Source: an uncultured Erysipelotrichaceae bacterium
GTDB lineage: Bacteria; Bacillota_I; Bacilli_A; Erysipelotrichales; Erysipelotrichaceae
Length of the DNA: 32,000 bases
Reading direction: 5' to 3'
NCBI GenBank assembly: GCA_942492995.1
Contig: OW818653.1
Span: 1,976,348-2,008,347, forward strand
In this document: one piece after another, positions 8,889 through 30,098 of the stretch
Layout of the letters: every line of letters starts with the position of its first letter
Position numbering within the stretch: the stretch's first letter is position 1
Notes under the pieces: generated by a model
Told to the model about the DNA's origin: nothing
The model's input: only the letters and a program-made list of their open reading frames with translations
Databases searched by the model: none
Translations under genes and position numbers: made by a program

Positions 8889-9596
8889 TTATTGTTTAAA
8901 GTAATCAAGAATTATCGACATATTATACCCTTGAACATAAGCTGTACTTAATTCTATGACCTTTTTTGATTTAGAATGGGTTGTACTTATAATTTTAAAT
9001 CCTGCAGATTCTTCTGGCGCATTGAATAATTTACACATTTCTTTCTCAAGTTTTATTGCGAAAATATTACGATGTGTTTGTTCAATGTTTTCTTTTAGTT
9101 TGTTTTCTTTAAAAGGTGATTTATATTCATCCAATGGTTGAATAATCTCAATATAAAACATCGTATGTCTTTCACCATAATAAATGCGTTTAGTAAAATG
9201 TACTTTGTCACCTTTATTTAATTCTAGAAGTGACATCGTCTTAGGGTTATAAGGAATAATCGTATGTTCAAGCTCAATCACATTTTCAGATAGTTCAGTT
9301 AAACTAATTTTCTCGGTTAACGGTAATACCGCTTTTAATAGATTGAAGCGTTCCTCTTTGGCTAAGACAAAACTTCCTTTCGATTTCTGACGATAGATTA
9401 AACGTTCTTCGATTAATTGTTTATACGCTTGACGAACAACTGGACGAGAAAGATTATGACTTAAACCAAGTTCTTCTTCAGTCGGTAATTTAGCGTCAGT
9501 TGGAAGTGTCCCATCATCAATAGCGTTACGAATTGAGCGAGCTAGTTGTATATGCAGAGGAATAGGGAGATTCTTATCGATCTTTATGAATTCCAT
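8889..9596 (-). CDS. GntR family regulator, HutC subfamily (wHTH + UTRA), type B copy 2
   Basis: KLPTEEELGLSHNLSRPVVRQAYKQLIEERLIYRQKSKGSFVL is a GntR wHTH, followed by a ~170 aa UTRA-like C-terminus with the SAGFKI motif shared with 10346-11083. The start at 9596 (MEFIKIDK) is supported by AAGGAG 9 nt upstream and by alignment to MDYIKLDK of the paralog. The track start is 9605. It overlaps the 3' end of the preceding gene. Confidence 0.8.
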   Translation of the reverse strand: MEFIKIDKNLPIPLHIQLARSIRNAIDDGTLPTDAKLPTEEELGLSHNLSRPVVRQAYKQLIEERLIYRQKSKGSFVLAKEERFNLLKAVLPLTEKISLTELSENVIELEHTIIPYNPKTMSLLELNKGDKVHFTKRIYYGERHTMFYIEIIQPLDEYKSPFKENKLKENIEQTHRNIFAIKLEKEMCKLFNAPEESAGFKIISTTHSKSKKVIELSTAYVQGYNMSIILDYFKQ

Positions 9597-10338
9597 AAAT
9601 TTCATCTCCTTTTTCTGTAATCTCTATTTTATGTTTATCACCGGGGAAATAGGATTGTTTATAAACGAATAGATTTTCATTCAAATCCTGTGTAATGATA
9701 ATAAATTTAAACAATGGATCACCTTCAGTTACCTCTAACAATTCCGCAAGTACCCCATTTGCTAATACTGCATTCATTGTAGTTTTAACTTCAAGTTCTA
9801 CATATCCATAACTTTCTCTTAATAAATTCGTGAAACTCGTATTATCCATAAATTGATCTTCAAAGTTCTTGAATTTATCTTGCGGTAAATAGAAGTATTC
9901 TAAAAATAATGGAATATTACTGCCTTTACGAATTCGTTTAACAAGATAAAAATCAATATTAAGTAATTGAAGTTCAAAGGGTAAATTATCCCGTTGATCA
10001 ATCTCAATACTTAGAATGCTAGATTCAGGCACTAAACCAACTTGTTTCACTTCATTCGCAAATCCATTAACGGTGTACATTAAGTTCGAAATCATAATTT
10101 TCTTATTAACATAACTGCCTTTACCTTGAATTCGATAGATTAATCCTTCTTTAAGTAACTCAGTATAGGCTTGTCTTACAACAGGTCTTGATATATTAAA
10201 TATAGAACATATTGATTCTTCGGTAGGTAATTGTTCCTTATCTTTTAAGACATTGTTTAAAATAGCGTTCTTAATAGAATCTTTTAATTGAAGATAAAGA
10301 GGTGTAGATAAAAATTTATTTAGATGAATGTAGTTCAT
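9574..10338 (-). CDS. GntR family regulator, HutC subfamily, type A copy 2
   Basis: MNYIHLNKFLSTPLYLQLKDSIKNAILNNVLKDKEQLPTEESICSIFNISRPVVRQAYTELLKEGLIYRIQGKGSYV, with a C-terminal YFPGDKH motif typical of HutC/UTRA ends. By eye, about 70 percent identical to 11070-11825 over the first ~80 aa. Confidence 0.85.
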   Translation of the reverse strand: MNYIHLNKFLSTPLYLQLKDSIKNAILNNVLKDKEQLPTEESICSIFNISRPVVRQAYTELLKEGLIYRIQGKGSYVNKKIMISNLMYTVNGFANEVKQVGLVPESSILSIEIDQRDNLPFELQLLNIDFYLVKRIRKGSNIPLFLEYFYLPQDKFKNFEDQFMDNTSFTNLLRESYGYVELEVKTTMNAVLANGVLAELLEVTEGDPLFKFIIITQDLNENLFVYKQSYFPGDKHKIEITEKGDEIYGIHKDR

Positions 10339-10345
10339 TGTGTCC

Positions 10346-11083
10346 TTAGAAATAGTTTACGGTCATGTTTGTCCCAAAACCTTTGAGATATGCGATCATG
10401 TATTCAACTCTTTTCCCATTACTTAGATAAGAAATTGTTTCAATTTTAAATCCAGCGGATCCCTTTTTAATTCCAAATCGTTCGCATATTTCTAAATTAA
10501 ATTTTATTGCGGTCATATGTCGATTCGAGGAAACAGTTTTATAATTAGGAATTTGATTCGAATAATTTTTTATAGGCTCATCTATTTTTAATTTATTTAT
10601 TGCGTCAGGATAGAGTTCAAGTGGTAAAAATACCTCCACATAGAATTGTGGTGTATCATCACCGAAATACATACGTTTAATATGTAAGACTTGAGTTGGT
10701 TCTGCATAACCCAATTTATCAAGATATTCAATTGGACAATCAATGACTTCTCTTAAGTATTCTTCGATTGTTGGATTCATATTATTCATTGAGATTTGTT
10801 CAGACAATGAATTTATGCTTTGAAGTATGGTGTATTTTGTCTTTTGCGTTAATACAAATGAACCTTTACCTTTATGTCTAAATATTAGTTCTTCTTCAAT
10901 TAACTTATTATACGCTTGACGTACAACAGGTCGTGAAATATTAAAGAACTGACAAAGTTCATCCTCGGTAGGAAGTTTATCCCCAGGGATTAAGAATTTT
11001 GCGCTAATCGCAGCCTTAATTGAAGTAAAGAGTTGTTGATGAAGAGGTGTAGGATTTGTTTTATCGAGTTTAATGTAATCCAT
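10346..11083 (-). CDS. GntR family regulator, HutC subfamily, type B copy 1
   Basis: MDYIKLDKTNPTPLHQQL...KLPTEDELCQFFNISRPVVRQAYNKLIEEELIFRHKGKGSFVL, with C-terminal SAGFKI and AYLKGF motifs shared with 8889-9596. AAGGAG lies 6 nt upstream of the ATG, inside the 3' end of the preceding gene (14-nt overlap). Confidence 0.85.
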   Translation of the reverse strand: MDYIKLDKTNPTPLHQQLFTSIKAAISAKFLIPGDKLPTEDELCQFFNISRPVVRQAYNKLIEEELIFRHKGKGSFVLTQKTKYTILQSINSLSEQISMNNMNPTIEEYLREVIDCPIEYLDKLGYAEPTQVLHIKRMYFGDDTPQFYVEVFLPLELYPDAINKLKIDEPIKNYSNQIPNYKTVSSNRHMTAIKFNLEICERFGIKKGSAGFKIETISYLSNGKRVEYMIAYLKGFGTNMTVNYF

Positions 11084-11825
11084 CGTTTTCTCCTTTTATC
11101 TCTACATCGATACTATGTCTTTCGCCTGGGAAGAAGGCGATTTTTAAGAATATTGGTACTCGGTTATGATTGAAATGCACAATATCAAAACGAATTGCGA
11201 CGGAACCTGTCTCTAATTTAAGAATACTAGCGATAGGATCATCTAACTCAATTGCACTTATTAAACATTCACCCAACAGATTGGGGAAATTGTAATTATC
11301 AGTAATCATTTTTGTGAGTGACATTTCATTATTTAGTTTTTCATCTAAATGTTTAAATAAATGAGTTGGGAAATAGAATATTTCATACGCAATTGGTACA
11401 TCGTCTGCGTTACGTACGCGTTTAATCGCATAATAACTAGGATAGTTTGGAAGTGGGAAATGAAAAGGTGGAAAATCACTAGAATCAATGACTTCGAAAC
11501 TTATGAAGTGTGAATTTGGTTGGAATCCTTTTAATATTACTTCTTCATTAAAGTTCTTCTTAAAGAAGATATTCGAAAAATTTACTTGTTTCTTAACAAA
11601 TGTACCCTTACCTTGATGACGTGTAATTAATCCTTCATCAATTAGTGTCTGATAAGCTTGTCTAACAACAGGTCTAGATATGTTAAAAACCTGCCCTATA
11701 AATTCTTCTGTGGGAAGTTTATCTTTGTCTTTTAAAACTCCATTGAGAATGGCATTTTTAATCGAGTTTTTAAGTTGTAAATACAGCGGTATTTTCGAAA
11801 ACTTATTAATTCGTATGTAATTCAT
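11070..11825 (-). CDS. GntR family regulator, HutC subfamily, type A copy 1 (first gene of the quartet)
   Basis: MNYIRINKFSKIPLYLQLKNSIKNAILNGVLKDKDKLPTEEFIGQVFNISRPVVRQAYQTLIDEGLITRHQGKGTFV, with the C-terminal FFPGERH motif. Confidence 0.85.
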   Translation of the reverse strand: MNYIRINKFSKIPLYLQLKNSIKNAILNGVLKDKDKLPTEEFIGQVFNISRPVVRQAYQTLIDEGLITRHQGKGTFVKKQVNFSNIFFKKNFNEEVILKGFQPNSHFISFEVIDSSDFPPFHFPLPNYPSYYAIKRVRNADDVPIAYEIFYFPTHLFKHLDEKLNNEMSLTKMITDNYNFPNLLGECLISAIELDDPIASILKLETGSVAIRFDIVHFNHNRVPIFLKIAFFPGERHSIDVEIKGENDGLH

Positions 11826-23979: not shown

Positions 23980-24007
23980 TTGCAATAATAATTAAATTCG
24001 ATACAAT
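23980..24007 (+). promoter_or_regulatory. Candidate sigma-A promoter of the leader / ankyrin / EF-G-paralog operon
   Basis: TTGCAA (23980-23985), a 16-nt spacer, then TACAAT (24002-24007). A perfect tandem AAGTATA AAGTATA (24010-24023) lies at the expected transcription start. Confidence 0.5.
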
Positions 24008-24039
24008 GAAAGTATAAAGTATAGAAAGAGGTGTTCATA

Positions 24040-24135
24040 ATGACAAGGGTATTGACTGTTTTTCTTGTCACACAAGACAATCAAACAACCGAGGTTGATG
24101 TCTTCGGCTGTGAATGCTTCATGAATGATTTTTAA
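24040..24135 (+). CDS. Candidate 31-codon leader ORF (MTRVLTVFLVTQDNQTTEVDVFGCECFMNDF)
   Basis: AAGAGGTG SD ends 6 nt before ATG 24040. The TAA at 24133-24135 overlaps the first bases of the terminator's 5' arm. It is too short for the ORF track, and I know of no homology. Confidence 0.35.
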   Translation: MTRVLTVFLVTQDNQTTEVDVFGCECFMNDF

Positions 24136-24170
24136 GATGGGTCTGGTGTGTCCATCTTTTTTATTTTCTT
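24134..24170 (+). terminator. Intrinsic terminator inside the operon leader (attenuator candidate)
   Basis: AAGATGG (24134-24140) / CCATCTT (24152-24158) with an 11-nt loop, followed by TTTTTTATTTTCTTTGTTT. It sits between the promoter and leader ORF and the ankyrin gene SD (AAGGAGG at 24184-24190). Confidence 0.7.
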
Positions 24171-24197
24171 TGTTTGAAGTACCAAGGAGGAACCAAT

Positions 24198-24866
24198 ATG
24201 GATCAAACAAATCAATTATTCTGGGAAGCAGCTGCAAGTGGTGACTTTCAAAAAGTCGTCGCAGCGCTAAACCAGGGCGCGGACGTAAATGTTCGCAATG
24301 CAGAGGCTAGAACAGCTTTAATGCGTACGGCAAAACGTGGGCATGAAAAAGTAGTTCGTTACCTGATTGATCATGGGGCTGATGTGAACGCAAAAGACAA
24401 TAATGGGAAGACGGCTTTGATGGGAGCGGCTAAAAAAGGCCACAATGAGATTGTGAAGATGTTAGTTGATGCGGGTGCGGATGTAAATATTCAGGATGTA
24501 AAAGGTCGCACTGCACTAATGCGTGCAGGATTCTTAGGTCACAATGAAGTTGTGGATATGTTAATTAAAAAGAATGCGAATGTGAATGCTAAAGATGAAA
24601 TGGGTAGAACCGTTCTTATGGAAGCTTGTTTAGCCTTTAGATATGATGTAATTAAGTTATTAGTAGATAAGAATGTAGAAATAAATGAACAAGATAATAA
24701 TGGATGTACAGCTTTAATGCGCGCTGCGTATAGTGGTTATGCGGAGTTAGTACAATATTTACTCGATCATGGGGCAGACAAAGAATTAATCGATTCAGAA
24801 GGTAATAAAGCCATTCACTATGTTAGAACTGATTGTTTAACGGAACTTAAACCGTTACTGAAATAG
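24198..24866 (+). CDS. Ankyrin-repeat protein with about 6.5 ANK repeats and no signal peptide
   Basis: Six consecutive 33-aa repeats of the form TALMxAAkkGHxEvVkxLvdxGADVNakDnxGx, for example TALMRTAKRGHEKVVRYLIDHGADVNAKDNNGK and TALMGAAKKGHNEIVKMLVDAGADVNIQDVKGR, plus capping half-repeats. The start at ATG 24198 lies 7 nt after AAGGAGG. The track start at 24174 lies upstream of the SD. Confidence 0.85.
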   Translation: MDQTNQLFWEAAASGDFQKVVAALNQGADVNVRNAEARTALMRTAKRGHEKVVRYLIDHGADVNAKDNNGKTALMGAAKKGHNEIVKMLVDAGADVNIQDVKGRTALMRAGFLGHNEVVDMLIKKNANVNAKDEMGRTVLMEACLAFRYDVIKLLVDKNVEINEQDNNGCTALMRAAYSGYAELVQYLLDHGADKELIDSEGNKAIHYVRTDCLTELKPLLK

Positions 24867-24878
24867 GGGAATAAAATA

Positions 24879-26960
24879 ATGAAAGATTATGCAGCGCACG
24901 AAGTTAAGAATATCTGTTTATTAGGTCATTCAGGTTCTGGAAAAACGGCTGTTGTGGAATCAATGCTTTATTTTACAAAGGCAACTGACCGTATGGGTAA
25001 AACCATAGATGGTACATCAGTGCTTGATTATGATGCGGAAGAAGTAAAACGAGGACTATCCGTCTTTACATCTCTTGCGCCAATAGAATGGAAAGATCAT
25101 AAGATTAATTTTATCGATACACCAGGTTATTTCGATTATGCACAAGAGATGGAAGCTGGTTTAGCTGTTGCGGATAATGCACTAATTGTTGTGGATGGAA
25201 AAGATGGTGTACAAACAGGTACACTTCGCGCATTCAAACAAGTATCTAAACGTAAGCTACCAACGATATTCTTCATTAATAAATTGGATGAAGAGAATAC
25301 AAGTTTTGACAAAGTATACAATCAATTACGTGATACCTTCGGTAAATCAGTTATACCATTTGAAATTCCTATTTATGAAAATGGTCAAATCGTTGGATCA
25401 GTTAATATTCTACGTAATAAAGCATGGTATTTGAATGATCGCGAAAATGCTAAAGATGTTCCAGAAGATTTGAAACCAATCGTTGAAGATTATCTAGCTC
25501 AAATTAGTGAATCAATTGCGATGACATGTGATGAGTTAATGGAAAAATTCTTCTCAGGTGAATCGTTTGATGAAGCTGAATTGATTCAAGGTGTTCGACT
25601 TGGCGTTAGATCTGGTGAGATTAGACCAGTCTATGCAGGTAGTGCAACGAAGATGTTAGGTATTGAAAGATTGATGGATTTAATTGGAGAATACTTCCCA
25701 TCTTATGGAGAATTAGGGACAGTTGAAGCATTAAATCAAAACAATGAAATAATTAAATTGCATACGGATGAATCAGAAGTATTTAGTGCATTAGTCTACA
25801 AAACAATCATTGACCCGTTTGTTGGAAGAATCTCATTTATTAAAGTTATGAGTGGATTCTTAACAAGTGATACTCAAGTCTATAATGTTCAAAAAGATAA
25901 AGCTGAAAAAGTAAGTCAAATATTTATCATCAAAGGCAAACATCAAATCGCAGTAGGCAAATTATTTACGGGTGACTTAGGGGCAATCGTTAAACTTCAA
26001 TACACTCAAACTAACGATACACTTGCGACTAAGGCTAAACTTGTAACATATGCACCAATAAAATTCCCAGAAGGATTATTGGCAATGAGTATTTGGCCGA
26101 AGAGCAAATTAGATGAAGATAAGATGAGTACATCACTTCAACGTGTTGAAGAAGAAGATCCTTCGTTCAAGATGGTAAAGAATGCGGAAACGAATGAACT
26201 AATTGTATATGGATTAGGTGATCAACACTTAGATGTCGTAGTCAATAAACTAAAGAGTAAATACAAAGTTGAAGTTGATTTGAAAGAACCACGTATTCCT
26301 TATCGTGAAACAATTAGAGCTACGGTAACGGTAGAAGGTAAACATAAGAAACAATCCGGTGGAGCAGGTCAGTTTGGAGATGTATTCATTACATTCGAAC
26401 CATGTGATTCACTCGATATGGTCTTTGAAGAAAAAGTAGTTGGAGGAGCAGTTCCTCGTCAATACTTCCCAGCGGTTGAAGCTGGTTTACGAGAAGCGAT
26501 GTTAAAAGGTGTACTTGCTGGATATCGTGTTGTTGGTGTTAAGGCAACGCTTGTGGATGGTAAGTATCACGATGTGGATTCAAAAGAAATCGCGTTTAAG
26601 ATGGCCGCAAGACTTGCGTATAAAGCTGGTATGCCATTAGCGAAACCTGTATTACTTGAACCAATTGTTAAAGTAGATGTTATTGCGCCAGAAGAATATA
26701 CTGGTACAATAATAGGTGACTTTAATAAACGTCGTGGATTGATTCTTGGAATGGATTTAAATGAAGAAGGTGAACAAGTTGTTTCAGCTGAAGTGCCGAT
26801 GTCAGAAGTTATGCGTTATTCAACAGAATTGAGATCCTTTACACAAGGTATCGGAACATATACTCAGAAATTCGATCGATATGAAGTTGCGCCACAACCA
26901 ATCGCTGATAAAGTTATTGCGCATGCCGCACATAGTTTAGATGACGATGACGATGAGTAA
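24879..26960 (+). CDS. Elongation factor G paralog (five-domain translational GTPase) with a non-canonical G1 and G3
   Basis: 693 aa. G1 GHSGSGKT, switch I RGLSV, G3 DTPGYFDY, G4 NKLD. Domain IV loop motifs HKKQSGGAGQFGDV and GKYHDVDSKEIAFKMAA match EF-G (QSGGRGQYGHV / SYHDVDSSEMAFKIAG). Acidic tail SLDDDDDE. It starts 12 nt after the ankyrin stop. It is not in an rpsL-rpsG-fusA-tuf context. Confidence 0.85.
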   Translation: MKDYAAHEVKNICLLGHSGSGKTAVVESMLYFTKATDRMGKTIDGTSVLDYDAEEVKRGLSVFTSLAPIEWKDHKINFIDTPGYFDYAQEMEAGLAVADNALIVVDGKDGVQTGTLRAFKQVSKRKLPTIFFINKLDEENTSFDKVYNQLRDTFGKSVIPFEIPIYENGQIVGSVNILRNKAWYLNDRENAKDVPEDLKPIVEDYLAQISESIAMTCDELMEKFFSGESFDEAELIQGVRLGVRSGEIRPVYAGSATKMLGIERLMDLIGEYFPSYGELGTVEALNQNNEIIKLHTDESEVFSALVYKTIIDPFVGRISFIKVMSGFLTSDTQVYNVQKDKAEKVSQIFIIKGKHQIAVGKLFTGDLGAIVKLQYTQTNDTLATKAKLVTYAPIKFPEGLLAMSIWPKSKLDEDKMSTSLQRVEEEDPSFKMVKNAETNELIVYGLGDQHLDVVVNKLKSKYKVEVDLKEPRIPYRETIRATVTVEGKHKKQSGGAGQFGDVFITFEPCDSLDMVFEEKVVGGAVPRQYFPAVEAGLREAMLKGVLAGYRVVGVKATLVDGKYHDVDSKEIAFKMAARLAYKAGMPLAKPVLLEPIVKVDVIAPEEYTGTIIGDFNKRRGLILGMDLNEEGEQVVSAEVPMSEVMRYSTELRSFTQGIGTYTQKFDRYEVAPQPIADKVIAHAAHSLDDDDDE

Positions 26961-26995: not shown

Positions 26996-27931
26996 ATGCC
27001 AAAATTATTCGCAATAGGTGGCGCAACCGTTGATTTAGTAGGTCGTCCCTACAAAACTTTAATCTATCAAGATTCAAACCCTGGTAGTGTTAAATTGTCT
27101 TTTGGAGGCGTTGCGCGAAATATCGCAGAAAATGCGGTTCGCTGTGGGAGTGAAGTGTCGTTAATGGCGCTTTTTGGTGATGATGCATTTGGTCAATTAT
27201 GTTATCAGTACTGTCAAAATCTTGGAATAGATCTATCGTTTAGTAATGTATTAAGCAATCACAGTTCTGCGACATATCTTGCATTACTTCAAGATAGTGG
27301 TGAGATGAATTTAGCGATAGCGGATATGGAAATCCTAAAAAAAGTAGATATAAATGATTTTGATCGTGGAATTAGTACGATGAAAATAGATGATTACTGT
27401 GCAATAGACACTAATTTAAGTGTTGAGGTATTAGAAAATTTATGTGCAAAAATACCTGCAAAGATTGCGATGGATCCTATCTCAACACAAAAAGCTGTAA
27501 AGGCAAAATCAATCTTAAAGTACTTATCTGTTTTTAAGCCAAACATTATGGAAGCAGAACTCGTTTGTGGTTTTGAAATCAATGATGATGTAAGTATGAA
27601 TAAGGCATTGGATTTCTTCACAGAAAAGGGTGTCAAAGAAATATTTATTACAGGTGGTGAAAAAGGTGTTTATACCAGTAATGGTAAATACAAATACCAC
27701 ATTTTTCATCAACCAGTAGAAACAGTAAATACAACAGGTGGCGGAGATGCATTTCTAGGAGTCTATCTCAGTTATCGCTTAAAAGGGTATGATTGGATAG
27801 AAGCGTGTGAATGGGGATTATATGCTTCTTATTTAACGGTCCAAACGAATGAAACAGTTGTCCGTGATCTTAGTGACGAGCTTTTATCTGAAGTGAAAGA
27901 AAGCATAATCATTTTTAAAGAAGAGTTATAA
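26996..27931 (+). CDS. PfkB-family carbohydrate kinase, pseudouridine kinase (YeiC/PsuK)-like
   Basis: 311 aa. DSNPGSVKLSFGGVARNIAEN, SATYLALLQDSGEMNLAIADM, DPISTQKAVK, FKPNIMEAELVCG, and TTGGGDAF line up block by block with E. coli YeiC as I remember it. Confidence 0.75.
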   Translation: MPKLFAIGGATVDLVGRPYKTLIYQDSNPGSVKLSFGGVARNIAENAVRCGSEVSLMALFGDDAFGQLCYQYCQNLGIDLSFSNVLSNHSSATYLALLQDSGEMNLAIADMEILKKVDINDFDRGISTMKIDDYCAIDTNLSVEVLENLCAKIPAKIAMDPISTQKAVKAKSILKYLSVFKPNIMEAELVCGFEINDDVSMNKALDFFTEKGVKEIFITGGEKGVYTSNGKYKYHIFHQPVETVNTTGGGDAFLGVYLSYRLKGYDWIEACEWGLYASYLTVQTNETVVRDLSDELLSEVKESIIIFKEEL

Positions 27932-27984
27932 TTGCACATTCGTTTTAATCGATATAAACTTAGTGATAATACGAGGTAATGATT

Positions 27985-28446
27985 ATGTATGAAAAATGTT
28001 TGAATATGTTATATGAAAGAGGTGTTGGATTAAGTGATATTGCACAATGTGTAATCTATTTACAACGCCAACATCATCCTGAAATACAAGAAGAGGAAAT
28101 TATTGAAGTTATTAAAAGTGTGCTGAAAAAACGTGAAGTGCAACACGCGATAATTACTGGAATTACATTAGATAAACTTGCGGAATCGAATCAGTTACAC
28201 GATGATGTCTTACATGATATACTGATGAAAGACGAATCGTTGTATGGTATAGATGAGGTTCTAGCGTACGGAATATGTAACTTATATGGGTCGATCGCAT
28301 TAACCAATTTTGGTTATATTGATCGTGAAAAACCATTAATTATTAAAACGTTAAATGAACATAGTCATATGTGTCATACATTCTTAGATGATATCGTTGG
28401 AGCAATTGCGGCAGCTGCGGCTAGTCGGATAGCACATAACGCTTAG
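27985..28446 (+). CDS. PgpA-family protein (YutG / LtrC-like, phosphatidylglycerophosphatase A family)
   Basis: ERGVGLSDIAQCVIYLQ, KREVQHAIITGITLDKLAE, DESLYGIDEVLAYGICNLYGSIALTNFGY, and HTFLDDIVGAIAAAAASRIAH closely follow B. subtilis YutG as I remember it. I prefer the start at ATG 27985 (8 nt after GAGG) over the track's 27979. Confidence 0.75.
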   Translation: MYEKCLNMLYERGVGLSDIAQCVIYLQRQHHPEIQEEEIIEVIKSVLKKREVQHAIITGITLDKLAESNQLHDDVLHDILMKDESLYGIDEVLAYGICNLYGSIALTNFGYIDREKPLIIKTLNEHSHMCHTFLDDIVGAIAAAAASRIAHNA

Positions 28447-28457
28447 TAGGAGGCAAA

Positions 28458-28880
28458 ATGAAAAAAATCTTAGCACTTGCAGTAATAATTGGATTAGTTT
28501 TAGGCGGATGTAGTACTGGGGGATTAACACAAGTTAAACCAACTGAAATAACAGAAAAATTTGAGGCGAGCGAAAGTTTCGTTGTATATCTTGGTTTGTC
28601 TTATTGTTCAGCATGTAAAATATTCAGAAGTATCGTTAGTTCAGTAATCGATGAATCAGGCACAACTGTTTATTATGTTGAATACGATAAAGAAGAACCT
28701 GCTGATCTCGAAACGCTTGTATTAACACATCTTGAACAAAACGAAACATTCCCATATAGTTTCCCGATTCTATTTGTTGTAGAAGAAGGTAAAATAATTG
28801 ATCAATTTTCATTGGCGCAAACAGATACCGAAGAAGAATTCAAAGCTCGGTTAATTAAGAATGGGGTCATTGAAGAATAA
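28458..28880 (+). CDS. Thioredoxin-fold lipoprotein (CxxC)
   Basis: Signal peptide with lipobox (LVLGGC). YCSAC follows a beta-strand (FVVYLGLSYCSACK), with a later FP (cis-Pro) and the typical small thioredoxin-like size (140 aa). Confidence 0.65.
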   Translation: MKKILALAVIIGLVLGGCSTGGLTQVKPTEITEKFEASESFVVYLGLSYCSACKIFRSIVSSVIDESGTTVYYVEYDKEEPADLETLVLTHLEQNETFPYSFPILFVVEEGKIIDQFSLAQTDTEEEFKARLIKNGVIEE

Positions 28881-29661
28881 AGAATTATCTTCAGTTATCA
28901 CAATTGAAGATATTAAAAGACAACTTAAACACATCGGCATTCAAAATGGCGATGTTTTAGAAGTTCATGCATCTTTAAAATCAATTGGATATGTTTTGGG
29001 AGGTGCAAATGCACTGCTTGAAGCGATACTCGAAACCATTGGTTTTGAAGGCACACTTGTGATGAGTGCTCAATCGTCAGGGAATAGTGAACCAGCTTAT
29101 TTTCAGAATCCACCAGTTGATGTTTCCCTTTATCAAAAAGTTAGAGAATCAATCCCGACATTTAAAGGAAAATTTGATGATTTAAGCGGAATGGGTTTAT
29201 TGGCTGTGGCTTTACAAAAACGACCATCGGTGTACTTCTCAAATCATCCTCAAGTTAGCTTAATGGCACATGGAAAACATGCGAAATGGATAACTCAATC
29301 ACATCCATTAAATGATATGTTTGGATTGAAATCACCACTAGCCAAAATGGTAGAACTTAAAACAAAAGTATTATTAATCGGCGTTGATTTTGATCGTTGT
29401 ACAGGCATGCATTTGGGAGAATATCTAAGTAATAAACGTCCAATCGTTATACAAGGATCAAGAATGACAGTCGGATCAAAAGAAGACTGGGTTAAATTCT
29501 TAAGTTATGACTTTGATTCAGATGAGTTTGTTAAAGTTGGTAGAATCATGGAAATGGATAATCGCATCAATTTATCATTATTAGGGAATGCGGTTATGAA
29601 AAGTTTTGATTTAGAATATGCGGTAAGAAGTACACAGCGCTATTTTGAGGAGAACTTCTAA
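28861..29661 (+). CDS. Aminoglycoside N(3)-acetyltransferase family protein (AAC(3)/YokD-like)
   Basis: 266 aa. The N-terminal block IEDIKRQLKHIGIQNGDVLEVHASLKSIGYVLGGANALLEAILETIGFEGTLVMSAQS and the later LLIGVDFDRCTGMHLGEY are characteristic of the Antibiotic_NAT family. It overlaps the previous gene by 20 nt and the next gene by 1 nt (TAATG). Confidence 0.8.
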   Translation: MGSLKNKELSSVITIEDIKRQLKHIGIQNGDVLEVHASLKSIGYVLGGANALLEAILETIGFEGTLVMSAQSSGNSEPAYFQNPPVDVSLYQKVRESIPTFKGKFDDLSGMGLLAVALQKRPSVYFSNHPQVSLMAHGKHAKWITQSHPLNDMFGLKSPLAKMVELKTKVLLIGVDFDRCTGMHLGEYLSNKRPIVIQGSRMTVGSKEDWVKFLSYDFDSDEFVKVGRIMEMDNRINLSLLGNAVMKSFDLEYAVRSTQRYFEENF

Positions 29662-30098
29662 TGTACATAAAACTATTTAATAAAACAATTGAAGTTAAAA
29701 CGGATGATACCGGTATATATTGGGTTGAATTTTGTGATAGTAACATAGATTTTAAAGTTGATAGCGAAAATACAATCCAAAAACAATTTACAGAGTATGA
29801 AAAAGGAGTAAGAAAAGTATTTGACTTACCCCTAAATATAAAAGGAACAGAATTTCAGAAAAAAGTATGGAATGCCTTGCTTGAGATACCGTATGGCGAA
29901 ACACGTAGTTATCAAGAAATTGCGATTCGTATCGGAAATCCCAAAGCTGTTCGAGCGGTTGGTGGAGCTTGTAATCGAAATCCAATTGGAATTATTGTCC
30001 CATGTCATCGTGTAGTCGGTAAGAATGGAAGCTTAACGGGTTATGCGGGTGGCTTAGATTACAAAAAACTGTTATTAGAAAAAGAAAAGATGGGTTAG
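29661..30098 (+). CDS. ogt: Methylated-DNA--protein-cysteine methyltransferase
   Basis: 145 aa. GTEFQKKVWNALLEIPYGETRSYQEIA, NPIGIIVPCHRVVGKNGSLTGYAGG (PCHR active site). Confidence 0.9.
   Translation: MYIKLFNKTIEVKTDDTGIYWVEFCDSNIDFKVDSENTIQKQFTEYEKGVRKVFDLPLNIKGTEFQKKVWNALLEIPYGETRSYQEIAIRIGNPKAVRAVGGACNRNPIGIIVPCHRVVGKNGSLTGYAGGLDYKKLLLEKEKMG

Follow-up and report, generated by a model that had tools for sequence, protein, structure and literature searches.

The window analysed here, a stretch of 32,000 nt from an uncultured Erysipelotrichaceae bacterium, carries a gene for a 693-aa paralog of elongation factor G. It is preceded by the gene of an ankyrin-repeat protein (about six repeats with a TALM(R)A..GH core) and, further upstream, by a short leader ORF that runs into a terminator-like hairpin (Table 1). 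The ankyrin start was placed at the ATG at 24198 and not at the TTG at 24174, as judged by the alignment of orthologs. The other genes around the pair code for a peptidase M3, a transglutaminase-like protein, a PfkB kinase and PgpA. Neither ribosomal protein genes nor tuf were found within the 32 kb, and the paralog lies outside the rpsL-rpsG-fusA-tuf (str) operon, as described for EFG II.

Table 1. Features of the ankyrin/EF-G locus, with positions in the window.
Feature	Coordinates	Strand	Basis or remark
Putative promoter-like site, TTGCAA-16 nt-TACAAT	23980..24007	+	Consensus scan
Leader short ORF, 31 codons (MTRVLTVFLVTQDNQTTEVDVFGCECFMNDF, then stop)	24040..24135	+	SD-like AGAGGTG just 5'
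Intrinsic-terminator-like hairpin (AAGATGGGTC...GTCCATCTT, 24134-24158), then T-run	24134..24168	+	Terminator scan
GTTTGAA motif (24172-24178), then ankyrin Shine-Dalgarno AAGGAGG (24184-24190)	24172..24190	+	In most leaders compared
Ankyrin-repeat protein gene, 222 aa	24198..24866	+	Pfam Ank families
EF-G paralog of EFG II / EF-G2 type, 693 aa	24879..26960	+	Five-domain Pfam architecture
P-loop GHSGSGKT (aa 16-23)	24924..24947	+	Aligned on AHIDAGKT
Switch I / G2 RGLSV (aa 58-62)	25050..25064	+	Aligned on RGITI
G3 / switch II DTPGY (aa 80-84)	25116..25130	+	Tyr84 at catalytic-His position
G4 NKLD (aa 134-137)	25278..25289	+	Canonical guanine-specificity motif
Domain IV loop QSGGAGQFG (aa 492-500)	26352..26378	+	Aligned on QSGGRGQYG of S. 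aureus EF-G
Domain IV loop YHDVDS (aa 563-568)	26565..26582	+	Same as canonical EF-G in alignment
Acidic C-terminal tail DDDDDE (aa 688-693)	26940..26957	+	Read from translation

A first-pass annotation had described the paralog as an EF-G whose catalytic switch II histidine is replaced by tyrosine, with a GHSGSGKT P-loop, RGLSV in switch I and a conserved NKLD, and all of these were recovered. Aligned by HMMER with EF-G of S. aureus (2xex), the protein shows no gaps across motifs G1 to G4, and the alignment sets idtpgYfdy on idtpgHvdf, GHSGSGKT on AHIDAGKT and RGLSV on RGITI. The register is thus not shifted, Tyr84 (codon at nt 25128-25130) falls on the histidine position, and a register error was rejected as the source of the tyrosine. 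With respect to AHIDAGKT, the P-loop changes Ala to Gly16, the gate Ile to Ser18 and the cation-binding Asp to Gly19, while in switch I Ser61 takes the place of the Mg-coordinating Thr. The G4 NKxD and G5 gSAx motifs are both retained (GSAT at aa 254-257). In the set formed by the window protein and its 120 closest homologs, the catalytic position was Tyr in 119 proteins and Phe in the other 2, so that the motifs are conserved and cannot be attributed to chance or sequencing error. At a wider range, the 150 nearest cluster representatives (clusters at 50% identity) included 70 with Tyr, 34 with Phe and only 5 with His.

Motifs of this kind characterize a known group. In the definition of Margus, Remm and Tenson (2011; PMC3150367), EFG II has a G1 of the form GhxxxGKT with Gly16, Ser instead of Thr in G2 (xxxSx, with RxxSI in the Clostridia subgroup), DxPG without the His in G3, and a Leu at position 25 that is 99% conserved and is Thr in EFG I. 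In EFGII, the name given to the group by Atkinson (2015), a Gly occupies the P-loop monovalent-cation site. The window protein has GHSGSGKT with Gly16 and a Gly for the cation-binding Asp, RGLSV with Ser at the fourth position, and DTPGY. It departs from the definition at position 25, which is Val (GHSGSGKTAV); this position is V or L in members of its clade and L in Clostridia-type proteins, and by sequence the Val is a conservative hydrophobic replacement that differs from the Thr of EFG I. The lack of His in 145 of the 150 nearest representatives was counted as additional support. Judged by its sequence, the product belongs to the widespread second EF-G family, EFG II / EF-G2, and the missing catalytic His is the normal, already published signature of that family. 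The idea that these motifs were built differently has to be abandoned, since they match the published signature (PMC3150367), including that of the Clostridia RxxSI subgroup. The His-to-Tyr change is not new either, as the same one occurs in T. thermophilus EF-G-2 and M. smegmatis EF-G2. On the other hand, the parallel drawn with a Bacteroides EF-G2 had indicated the right family.

Profile scores agreed with this placement. The best model was NCBIfam NF009381 (subfamily PRK12740.1-5; 868 bits, cutoff 583), whereas the canonical EF-G equivalog TIGR00484 scored below its threshold (639 bits, cutoff 659.4), all three motifs being different. Scores were also below the cutoffs of the Bacteroidota EF-G2 model NF058620 (557, cutoff 1000) and the EF-G2 equivalog NF009377 (565, cutoff 890). 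Among PDB entries, the G domain scored highest against the EF-G2 structures 7uvp (128.6 bits) and 1wdt. The best-scoring canonical EF-G representative was a Dictyoglomus protein, and the supplementary tables of Atkinson (2015) contain no Erysipelotrichia entries. A role in anti-phage defense was rejected: among the PADLOC models, none matched the EF-G paralog, the ankyrin protein had repeat-level matches only, and no match covered both proteins.

The architecture is that of a complete EF-G. Pfam GTP_EFTU (aa 8-275), EF-G_D2, EFG_III, EFG_IV and EFG_C were all identified, including the G' insertion, and the AF2 model (pLDDT 91.5) has the complete EF-G fold, with Foldseek TM values of 0.79 to 0.92 against EF-G and EF-G2 structures. 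Fold comparison was discarded as a way to tell the two types apart, with TM of 0.8 to 0.9 for both. The two domain IV motifs highlighted in the initial reading, QSGGAGQFG and YHDVDS, are present and look canonical; in a 57-sequence alignment H564, V566, D567 and S568 were invariant, while Ala496 is specific to the clade (His in Clostridia-type proteins, Arg in canonical EF-G), as is Lys569. Gly59 of switch I is likewise clade specific, with Lys at that site in the Clostridia-type proteins. The acidic tail does end the protein, and residues 691 to 693 of the model have pLDDT <50. However, it is not distinctive: tails with four or more acidic residues among the last six were counted in 27 of the 30 proteins of the clade, but also in 23 of the 47 of Clostridia type, and we discarded it as a clade-specific or ankyrin-linked trait because it is common across the wider family.

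What the altered GTPase center means for activity is harder to judge. That the chemistry is changed stands (Tyr84 for His, Gly19, Ser18, Ser61), but the suggestion that it is disabled does not follow from the tyrosine, because the biochemistry of Tyr-bearing EF-G2 proteins is split. T. thermophilus EF-G-2 was reported to have intrinsic and ribosome-dependent GTPase as well as translocation activity (PMC3150367), while M. smegmatis EF-G2, with Tyr98, was reported without ribosome-dependent GTPase (PDB 9K0Z/9K10). In the latter, Tyr98 faces away from the gamma-phosphate, and an engineered H88Y change in mycobacterial EF-G1 nearly abolished ribosome-dependent GTPase activity. By analogy, ribosome-stimulated hydrolysis by the window protein is probably much weaker than by EF-G, although this is not assured because the Thermus factor, of the same Tyr and P-loop type, is reported active. 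Alternatively, the paralog could be an additional translocase with full GTPase activity, as reported for T. thermophilus EF-G-2, working as a second and differently regulated EF-G. The shared GHxGSGKT and DxPGY motifs would fit such a factor, as would the Arg58-Gly59, NKLD, GSA and canonical domain IV loops kept in the window protein. Nevertheless, the effect of H88Y and the orientation of Tyr98 speak against it, and the P-loop cation-binding Asp and the gate Ile have been lost too, so that we regard full activity as unlikely, if a serious contender. Switch I (RG-L-S-V) and the G4 NKLD of the window protein are nearer to canonical EF-G than those of either characterized Tyr-type EF-G2.

The physiological role of EFG II / EF-G2 is still described as unknown or species specific. 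So far it has been connected with slow GTP-independent translation in Bacteroides, where B. thetaiotaomicron EF-G2 supports translation of this kind and is induced when carbon is limiting, with the trapping of ribosomes during stress in mycobacteria, and with an active GTPase in Thermus. Across 305 surveyed genomes, those with one EFG invariably had EFG I, and EFG II never occurred without another EFG (PMC3150367). By that published rule, a canonical fusA would be expected in the genomes considered here. If instead the paralog had replaced fusA as the only EF-G of the organism, no canonical P-loop or G3 should be found, and none was, either in the window or in the 87 loci retrieved; this is expected anyway for stretches of ~12 kb and is uninformative. 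Such a replacement seems extremely unlikely given the 305-genome rule, the score under the canonical equivalog cutoff, and a location outside the str operon behind a putative attenuator, an arrangement hardly to be expected of a factor that is essential and highly expressed.

In Erysipelotrichales, the paralog has a constant companion in the ankyrin gene. All 33 loci examined from this order have it immediately upstream of the paralog, in the same orientation and separated by 6 to 22 nt, and none of the 54 Clostridia-type loci has it, counts that are not phylogenetically independent, as all ankyrin-linked loci come from one order. The cultured Dubosiella newyorkensis, outside the 33-locus count, also has the pair, with 57% identity of the ankyrin protein. 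The initial reading had suggested that an ankyrin partner would be a novelty; we found the pairing strictly conserved and lineage specific, and a literature search retrieved no published description of the ankyrin/EF-G2 pairing or of its leader attenuator. Orthologs of the ankyrin protein are 86, 74 and 64% identical. Beyond them its relatives are generic repeat matches with at most 47% identity, and a PDB search returned DARPins and ankyrins only, with no functional clue. The Clostridia-type loci have no conserved partner gene of their own; their sole recurrent neighbors are divergently oriented genes that, by sequence appearance, may belong to aromatic amino acid biosynthesis.

At the junction, the ankyrin stop codon overlaps the Shine-Dalgarno of the EF-G gene, which suggests translational coupling and a roughly stoichiometric synthesis of both proteins. 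An in-frame read-through fusion was rejected: the two genes share a frame in the window, but the gap in relatives is not a multiple of three. From the gene linkage we infer that the ankyrin protein may bind or modulate the factor, or the complex that the factor forms with the ribosome.

The leader is equally conserved in its layout. The TAA stop of the leader ORF overlaps the first bases of the terminator stem. In the window the hairpin ends 39 nt before the ankyrin start codon, and 31 of 32 loci have a terminator 29 to 47 nt 5' of that codon (L029, also ankyrin linked, has no recognizable one). An SD-led ORF of 19 to 35 codons stopping at or inside the hairpin was detected in 31 of the 32 scorable ankyrin-linked loci, compared to 0 of 49 Clostridia-type loci. 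A promoter-like TTGnnn...TACAAT pair occupies a matching relative position in loci L001 and L003 to L007. While the sequence of the leader peptide diverges beyond recognition between lineages, its length and end point are kept. Compensatory changes occur at four of the eight aligned stem pairs, and in the loci that have diverged most the stem still folds from an unrelated sequence. No Rfam family matched the leader, folding of the whole leader was no better than that of shuffles (z = -0.13), so that the terminator hairpin alone is supported, and no alternative antiterminator helix was identified. With a promoter-like site and an SD-led ORF overlapping a terminator, conserved in relatives, the ankyrin/EF-G unit is preceded by the architecture of a leader-peptide transcription attenuator, and it presumably works as one.

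It could be argued that the ankyrin gene and the leader are mere neighbors held together by shared ancestry, with the leader ORF as the end of an unrelated transcription unit, and the restriction of all ankyrin-linked loci to one order would agree with that. We find it decidedly improbable. The outer genes on both sides have been replaced among relatives while the ankyrin/EF-G pair stays together at its 6- to 22-nt spacing; all 19 non-redundant loci had the leader ORF/terminator arrangement, where the shuffle control gave 0.89 as the number expected by chance, and the length and end point of the ORF have outlasted its peptide sequence; and the promoter-like site stands between the preceding gene and the leader.

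An attenuator upstream of an EF-G paralog also brings to mind an inducible antibiotic-tolerance or ribosome-protection module, in which ribosomes stalled by a drug on the leader would induce a rescuing EF-G-like factor modeled on Tet(M)/Tet(O) or on a fusidic-acid-insensitive EF-G. Leader attenuation is a known mode of regulation of the Tn916 gene tet(M) and of ABC-F resistance genes. Switch II offers a further hint, since residue 87 is Tyr in the clade against Phe in 46 of 47 Clostridia-type proteins, and the equivalent Phe88 of S. aureus is a fusidic acid resistance site (PDB titles 3zzt/3zzu). However, the protein scored 301 bits with the tetracycline ribosomal protection model (NF012153, tet_protect; cutoff 775) and its domain IV loops are of the EF-G type. 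Furthermore, the module is chromosomal and inherited order-wide, with both genes diverging in step and nothing mobile nearby. Altogether this makes a resistance role improbable.

The explanation that we favor, with a probability of roughly 60%, is that the paralog is an accessory ribosome-binding factor of the EFG II type, encoded in an ankyrin operon under a leader attenuator, and not a housekeeping translocase. By analogy with the characterized EF-G2 proteins, it would bind GTP and the factor-binding site of the ribosome, where it might either translocate slowly with little dependence on GTP hydrolysis or keep ribosomes in a certain state while ordinary elongation is impaired. In Erysipelotrichales the EF-G2 gene would be expressed as the second cistron, after the dedicated gene for the 222-aa ankyrin protein. 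Downstream of the putative promoter and the leader of 19 to 35 codons, the 5' arm of the terminator starts at the stop codon of the leader or close to it. A ribosome on the last leader codons or on the stop would cover this arm, block the hairpin and allow read-through, while transcription would terminate if no ribosome were there when the RNA polymerase reached the T-run. How ribosomes behave on the leader would therefore determine the expression of the pair. Models in which the ribosome blocks the hairpin require it to follow close behind the RNA polymerase, which is debated for Bacillota.

Going further, and only tentatively, the locus may be a two-protein system in which the ankyrin partner binds the factor, or its complex with the ribosome, and tunes its activity, and the dwell of ribosomes at the end of the leader sets the synthesis of both by feedback, as this dwell time would itself depend on the capacity for translocation, termination and recycling. 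If true, this would be the first time that a protein cofactor, and a control circuit that senses ribosomes, are described for a bacterial EF-G2.

What appears to be new in this locus is the order-wide Erysipelotrichales operon of EF-G2 and a dedicated ankyrin protein behind a putative leader attenuator. It opens two routes to experiment, through a candidate partner protein and through a candidate signal for induction, in carriers that include the cultured gut- or animal-associated Dubosiella newyorkensis, Absicoccus intestinalis and Anaerorhabdus furcosa. It also corrects an over-reading of the histidine loss, which is the rule in a very large family and by itself no predictor of GTP hydrolysis.

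Among known systems, the closest is the Clostridia sub-subgroup of EFG II, with which the window protein shares the five domains, the G1 with Gly16, RxxS[IV], DxPG without the His, NKxD and a gene position away from the str operon. Within EFG II it counts as one of the least diverged types, its domains III to V being near canonical EF-G. It differs from that sub-subgroup in Val25 and in Gly59, which restores the "RG" of RGITI, and, unlike the 54 Clostridia-type loci examined, its gene is linked to an ankyrin gene and a putative leader-peptide attenuator.

T. thermophilus EF-G-2 (PDB 1WDT/2DY1; Connell et al. 2007) has the same type of P-loop (GHAGSGKT) and the same His-to-Tyr change (DAPGYGDF), with a Foldseek TM of 0.79. 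However, it is only ~33% identical, is shorter (665 aa), lacks an RG-type switch I, has no known ankyrin partner and is reported to be GTPase-active. M. smegmatis EF-G2 (TM 0.88) also combines the His-to-Tyr change with a Gly/Ser-rich P-loop and binds ribosomes, as the window protein probably would. In the mycobacterial protein, degeneration of the P-loop (GPSGG), of switch I and of G4 (TKLD) has gone much further, and the loops of domain IV sit away from the tRNA; the window protein has retained NKLD and R58, and its own domain IV loops are canonical. B. thetaiotaomicron EF-G2 (fusA2, BT2167; PDB 7UVP/8DMF) resembles it in the Gly/Ser P-loop (GSSGSGKT in Bacteroides) and is an accessory factor under nutrient limitation, but has Ser at the catalytic position and YGYSV as G2. 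Its gene is controlled by the transcription factor BT4338 and not by a leader peptide.

For the leader, the nearest counterparts are those of E. coli pyrBI and of tet(M) on Tn916, in which a short translated ORF likewise runs into an intrinsic terminator and a translating ribosome can physically prevent the formation of the terminator hairpin. Unlike in those two systems, the genes placed behind the leader here are those of an ankyrin protein and an EF-G paralog.

The locus scan, with one genome per species, returned 80 loci carrying the EF-G paralog at 99% to 43% identity, the closest (99%) in an uncultured Erysipelotrichaceae MAG (DASSDQ010000140.1). Linkage to the ankyrin-repeat gene was counted over 87 loci, 33 with an EF-G paralog at least 54% identical to that of the window and 54 at ≤52%. 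The ankyrin gene lay upstream on the same strand, with a gap of 6 to 22 nt, in all 33 of the former, every one of them from the Erysipelotrichales (including Absicoccus intestinalis and Merdibacter), and was absent from all 54 of the latter (Clostridia, Acetivibrio, Oscillospiraceae, Syntrophomonadaceae, and others). Outside this count, the cultured Dubosiella newyorkensis also has the ankyrin gene, at 57% identity. Clostridia-type loci had no equivalent co-directional partner gene. In six relatives looked up singly (66 to 88% identity), a 222/223-amino-acid gene was kept directly upstream of the EF-G paralog even where all other flanking genes differed, and its products were orthologs of the window ankyrin protein (86, 74, and 64% identity). 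The stop codon of the ankyrin gene and the Shine-Dalgarno sequence of the EF-G paralog overlap (24864-24881 in the window; TAGGGG, TAGGAG, TGAGGA, or TAGGTG across the window and relatives L001 and L003 to L007), which suggests that the two cistrons are translationally coupled. They share a reading frame in the window and not in the relatives. In these neighborhoods, the ankyrin gene is a fixed partner of the EF-G paralog within one lineage.

Beyond its orthologs, homolog and PDB searches found only repeat-level similarity for the ankyrin protein, and PADLOC gave no support for a defense system. Every repeat has a TALM(R)A..GH core, the textbook version being TPLH..A..GH. With a pI of about 6.3, the protein is itself mildly acidic, which makes a simple charge match to the acidic tail of the EF-G paralog less than obvious.

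The pair is preceded by a predicted leader-peptide attenuator, a short open reading frame followed by a terminator-like hairpin, with the ankyrin start codon 39 nt beyond the hairpin and T-run in the window. Among 32 scorable ankyrin-linked loci, 31 have the hairpin and T-run with the ankyrin ATG 29 to 47 nt further on, together with a Shine-Dalgarno-led ORF of 19 to 35 codons that stops at the hairpin or within it; the arrangement was seen in 0 of 49 Clostridia-type loci. In a shuffle control, the leader ORF was present in 19/19 non-redundant loci versus 0.89 expected. The leader peptides are unrelated across lineages but keep their length and end point, many finishing in F or NDF immediately before the stop. 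Compensatory changes were seen in 4 of 8 aligned pairs of the hairpin stem, the most divergent loci have other, still foldable stems, and no Rfam family matches the leader. In the simplest mechanism, a ribosome that has reached the final codons of the leader or its stop codon would cover the 5′ arm of the terminator, allowing read-through into the ankyrin and EF-G paralog genes. On sequence alone, such read-through might report either fast, closely coupled leader translation or slow release at the leader stop codon.

The sole ankyrin-linked locus without a recognizable leader terminator, L029 (uncultured Erysipelotrichaceae, 58% identity), has an upstream region resembling a plain promoter and Shine-Dalgarno sequence and may have lost the attenuator secondarily. 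A GTTTGA(A/G) motif, conserved in most of the Erysipelotrichales leaders compared, lies between the T-run and the ankyrin Shine-Dalgarno sequence; it may be contacted by a protein or an RNA, or may belong to an alternative structure. The small antisense ORF in this region is most likely spurious.

Features of the EF-G paralog locus (window coordinates)
Feature	Position	Strand	Remark
GntR-family regulator genes with UTRA effector domain	8889-11825	-	four consecutive, 237-253 aa each
Promoter-like site	23980-24007	+	
ORF, TTG start	23992-24237	-	81 aa; antisense to promoter, leader ORF, and terminator
Leader ORF	24040-24135	+	31 codons, Shine-Dalgarno-led
Terminator-like hairpin and T-run	24134-24168	+	first bases overlap leader TAA
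GTTTGA(A/G) motif	24172-24178		
Ankyrin-repeat protein gene	24198-24866	+	222 aa; directly 5′ of EF-G paralog; ATG 24198 from ortholog alignment
EF-G paralog	24879..26960	+	ATG start, 693 aa
Gly59	25053-25055		switch I; clade-specific
Tyr84	25128-25130		catalytic-His position
Tyr87	25137-25139		switch II; clade-specific
Ala496	26364-26366		domain IV loop SGGAGQ; clade-specific
Lys569	26583-26585		adjoins YHDVDS; clade-specific
PfkB-family kinase gene	26996-27931		35 nt after EF-G paralog; best NCBIfam match pseudouridine kinase, far under cutoff
PgpA-like, small PedC-like, aminoglycoside 3-N-acetyltransferase-family, and O6-methylguanine-DNA methyltransferase genes	27979-30098		downstream run

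Elsewhere the window consists of ordinary housekeeping DNA of a chromosome. Neither ribosomal protein genes nor tuf occur within the 32 kb, which places the EF-G paralog outside the str operon, a position typical for EFG II (PMC3150367). By the published rule that EFG II is always accompanied by another EF-G, normally EFG I (PMC3150367), a canonical fusA would be presumed elsewhere in these genomes. No terminator-like site was detected between the EF-G paralog and the PfkB-family kinase gene; the latter is kept in the 87 to 88% relatives (L001 and L002), more distant relatives have other genes in its place, and it therefore lies outside the conserved unit. The run further downstream is syntenic in L001 and L003, and its acetyltransferase-family ORF (28861-29661) overlaps the preceding one by 20 nt. 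The GntR/UTRA genes form a tandem array of paralogous regulators.

The first-pass annotation had described an EF-G paralog with Tyr for the catalytic His, a GHSGSGKT P-loop, and RGLSV in switch I, and this description held. HMMER aligned residues 3 to 680 to Staphylococcus aureus EF-G (PDB 2xex) without gaps across G1 to G4 (GHSGSGKT/AHIDAGKT, RGLSV/RGITI, idtpgYfdy/idtpgHvdf), so that Tyr84 sits on the catalytic His and a register error is ruled out. Pfam recovered the full EF-G domain set (GTP_EFTU, EF-G_D2, EFG_III, EFG_IV, and EFG_C), and NKLD, QSGGAGQFG, YHDVDS, and the DDDDDE end were each where they had been claimed, together with GSAT. The accompanying interpretation is partly supported; the motifs are not new. 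EFG II is defined by G1 GhxxxGKT with Gly16 for Ala, G3 DxPG, G4 NKxD, and a relaxed G2 in which the Thr that coordinates Mg gives way to Ser, the Clostridia subgroup reading RxxSI (Margus et al. 2011, PMC3150367). EFG II also has Gly at the P-loop site where other translational GTPases bind a monovalent cation (Atkinson 2015). By sequence, the three odd motifs fit this definition.

Searched against the PDB, the G domain alone (amino acids 1 to 187) had two EF-G2 proteins as best matches, that of Bacteroides thetaiotaomicron (7uvp), with its own motifs GSSGSGKT and DCPGSDDF, and Thermus thermophilus EF-G-2 (1wdt), whose GHAGSGKT and DAPGYGDF share the P-loop type and the His-to-Tyr change; Mycobacterium smegmatis EF-G2 likewise has Tyr (Y98) there. 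Among NCBIfam models, the protein passed the cutoff only for NF009381 (868 versus 583), scoring below it for canonical EF-G (TIGR00484, 639 versus 659.4), two EF-G2 equivalogs, and tetracycline protection proteins (301 versus 775). HMMER was run exhaustively over 1.84 billion cluster representatives, and among its 150 best hits the catalytic position was Tyr in 70, Phe in 34, and His in 5, two of the last canonical. The protein and its 120 closest homologs (66 to 99% identity; Erysipelotrichia, Anaerorhabdus, and Erysipelothrix proteins bearing the name “elongation factor G”) had 119 Tyr and 2 Phe. An AlphaFold2 model (pLDDT 91.5, pTM 0.84) gave a complete EF-G in an extended, ribosome-bound-like shape, with TM scores of 0.92 to Escherichia coli EF-G on the ribosome and 0.88, 0.85, and 0.79 to the M. 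smegmatis, B. thetaiotaomicron, and T. thermophilus (1wdt) EF-G2 proteins; the predicted fold supports EF-G architecture and does not tell the subfamilies apart. These comparisons assign the protein to EFG II (EF-G2). As an EF-G paralog without the catalytic His, it adds one more member to an established family, and the literature had already explained the missing His.

What appears specific to the Erysipelotrichales is the predicted module of leader ORF/terminator, ankyrin gene, and EFG II gene, of which we could not find a prior description. The suspicion that the ankyrin pairing would be new was borne out, full-text searching on an operon of ankyrin and elongation factor G having turned up unrelated papers only. 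Within the protein, 24 positions carry residues that are kept at ≥90% across the ankyrin-linked clade and seldom occur in Clostridia-type EFG II. Gly59, Tyr87, Ala496, and Lys569 are among these positions, which may have co-adapted with the ankyrin protein; the domain IV loop reads SGGAGQ in the clade, SGGHGQ in Clostridia-type EFG II, and SGGRGQ in canonical EF-G. The strictly conserved partner and the predicted translation-sensing leader offer testable handles, in cultivable gut bacteria, on the still unsettled function of EF-G2.

The literature on Tyr-type EF-G2 is divided over GTPase activity. For M. smegmatis EF-G2, ribosome-dependent GTPase is reported to be lacking and Tyr98 to face away from the gamma-phosphate, and an engineered H88Y change nearly abolished EF-G1 activity. 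B. thetaiotaomicron EF-G2, with Ser at the catalytic site, is described as strongly induced on carbon limitation and as enabling GTP-independent translation. GTP hydrolysis by the window protein is probably much reduced; an active GTPase carries substantial weight, given that T. thermophilus EF-G-2, also Tyr-type, is reported to be active in translocation and to have GTPase activity both intrinsically and with the ribosome. Of the characterized Tyr-type proteins, those of T. thermophilus and M. smegmatis, each is more degenerate than the window protein, which retains NKLD, the Arg58-Gly59 of switch I, and domain IV loops of canonical type. From this we would expect it to bind GTP and the ribosome and to have some competence for translocation.
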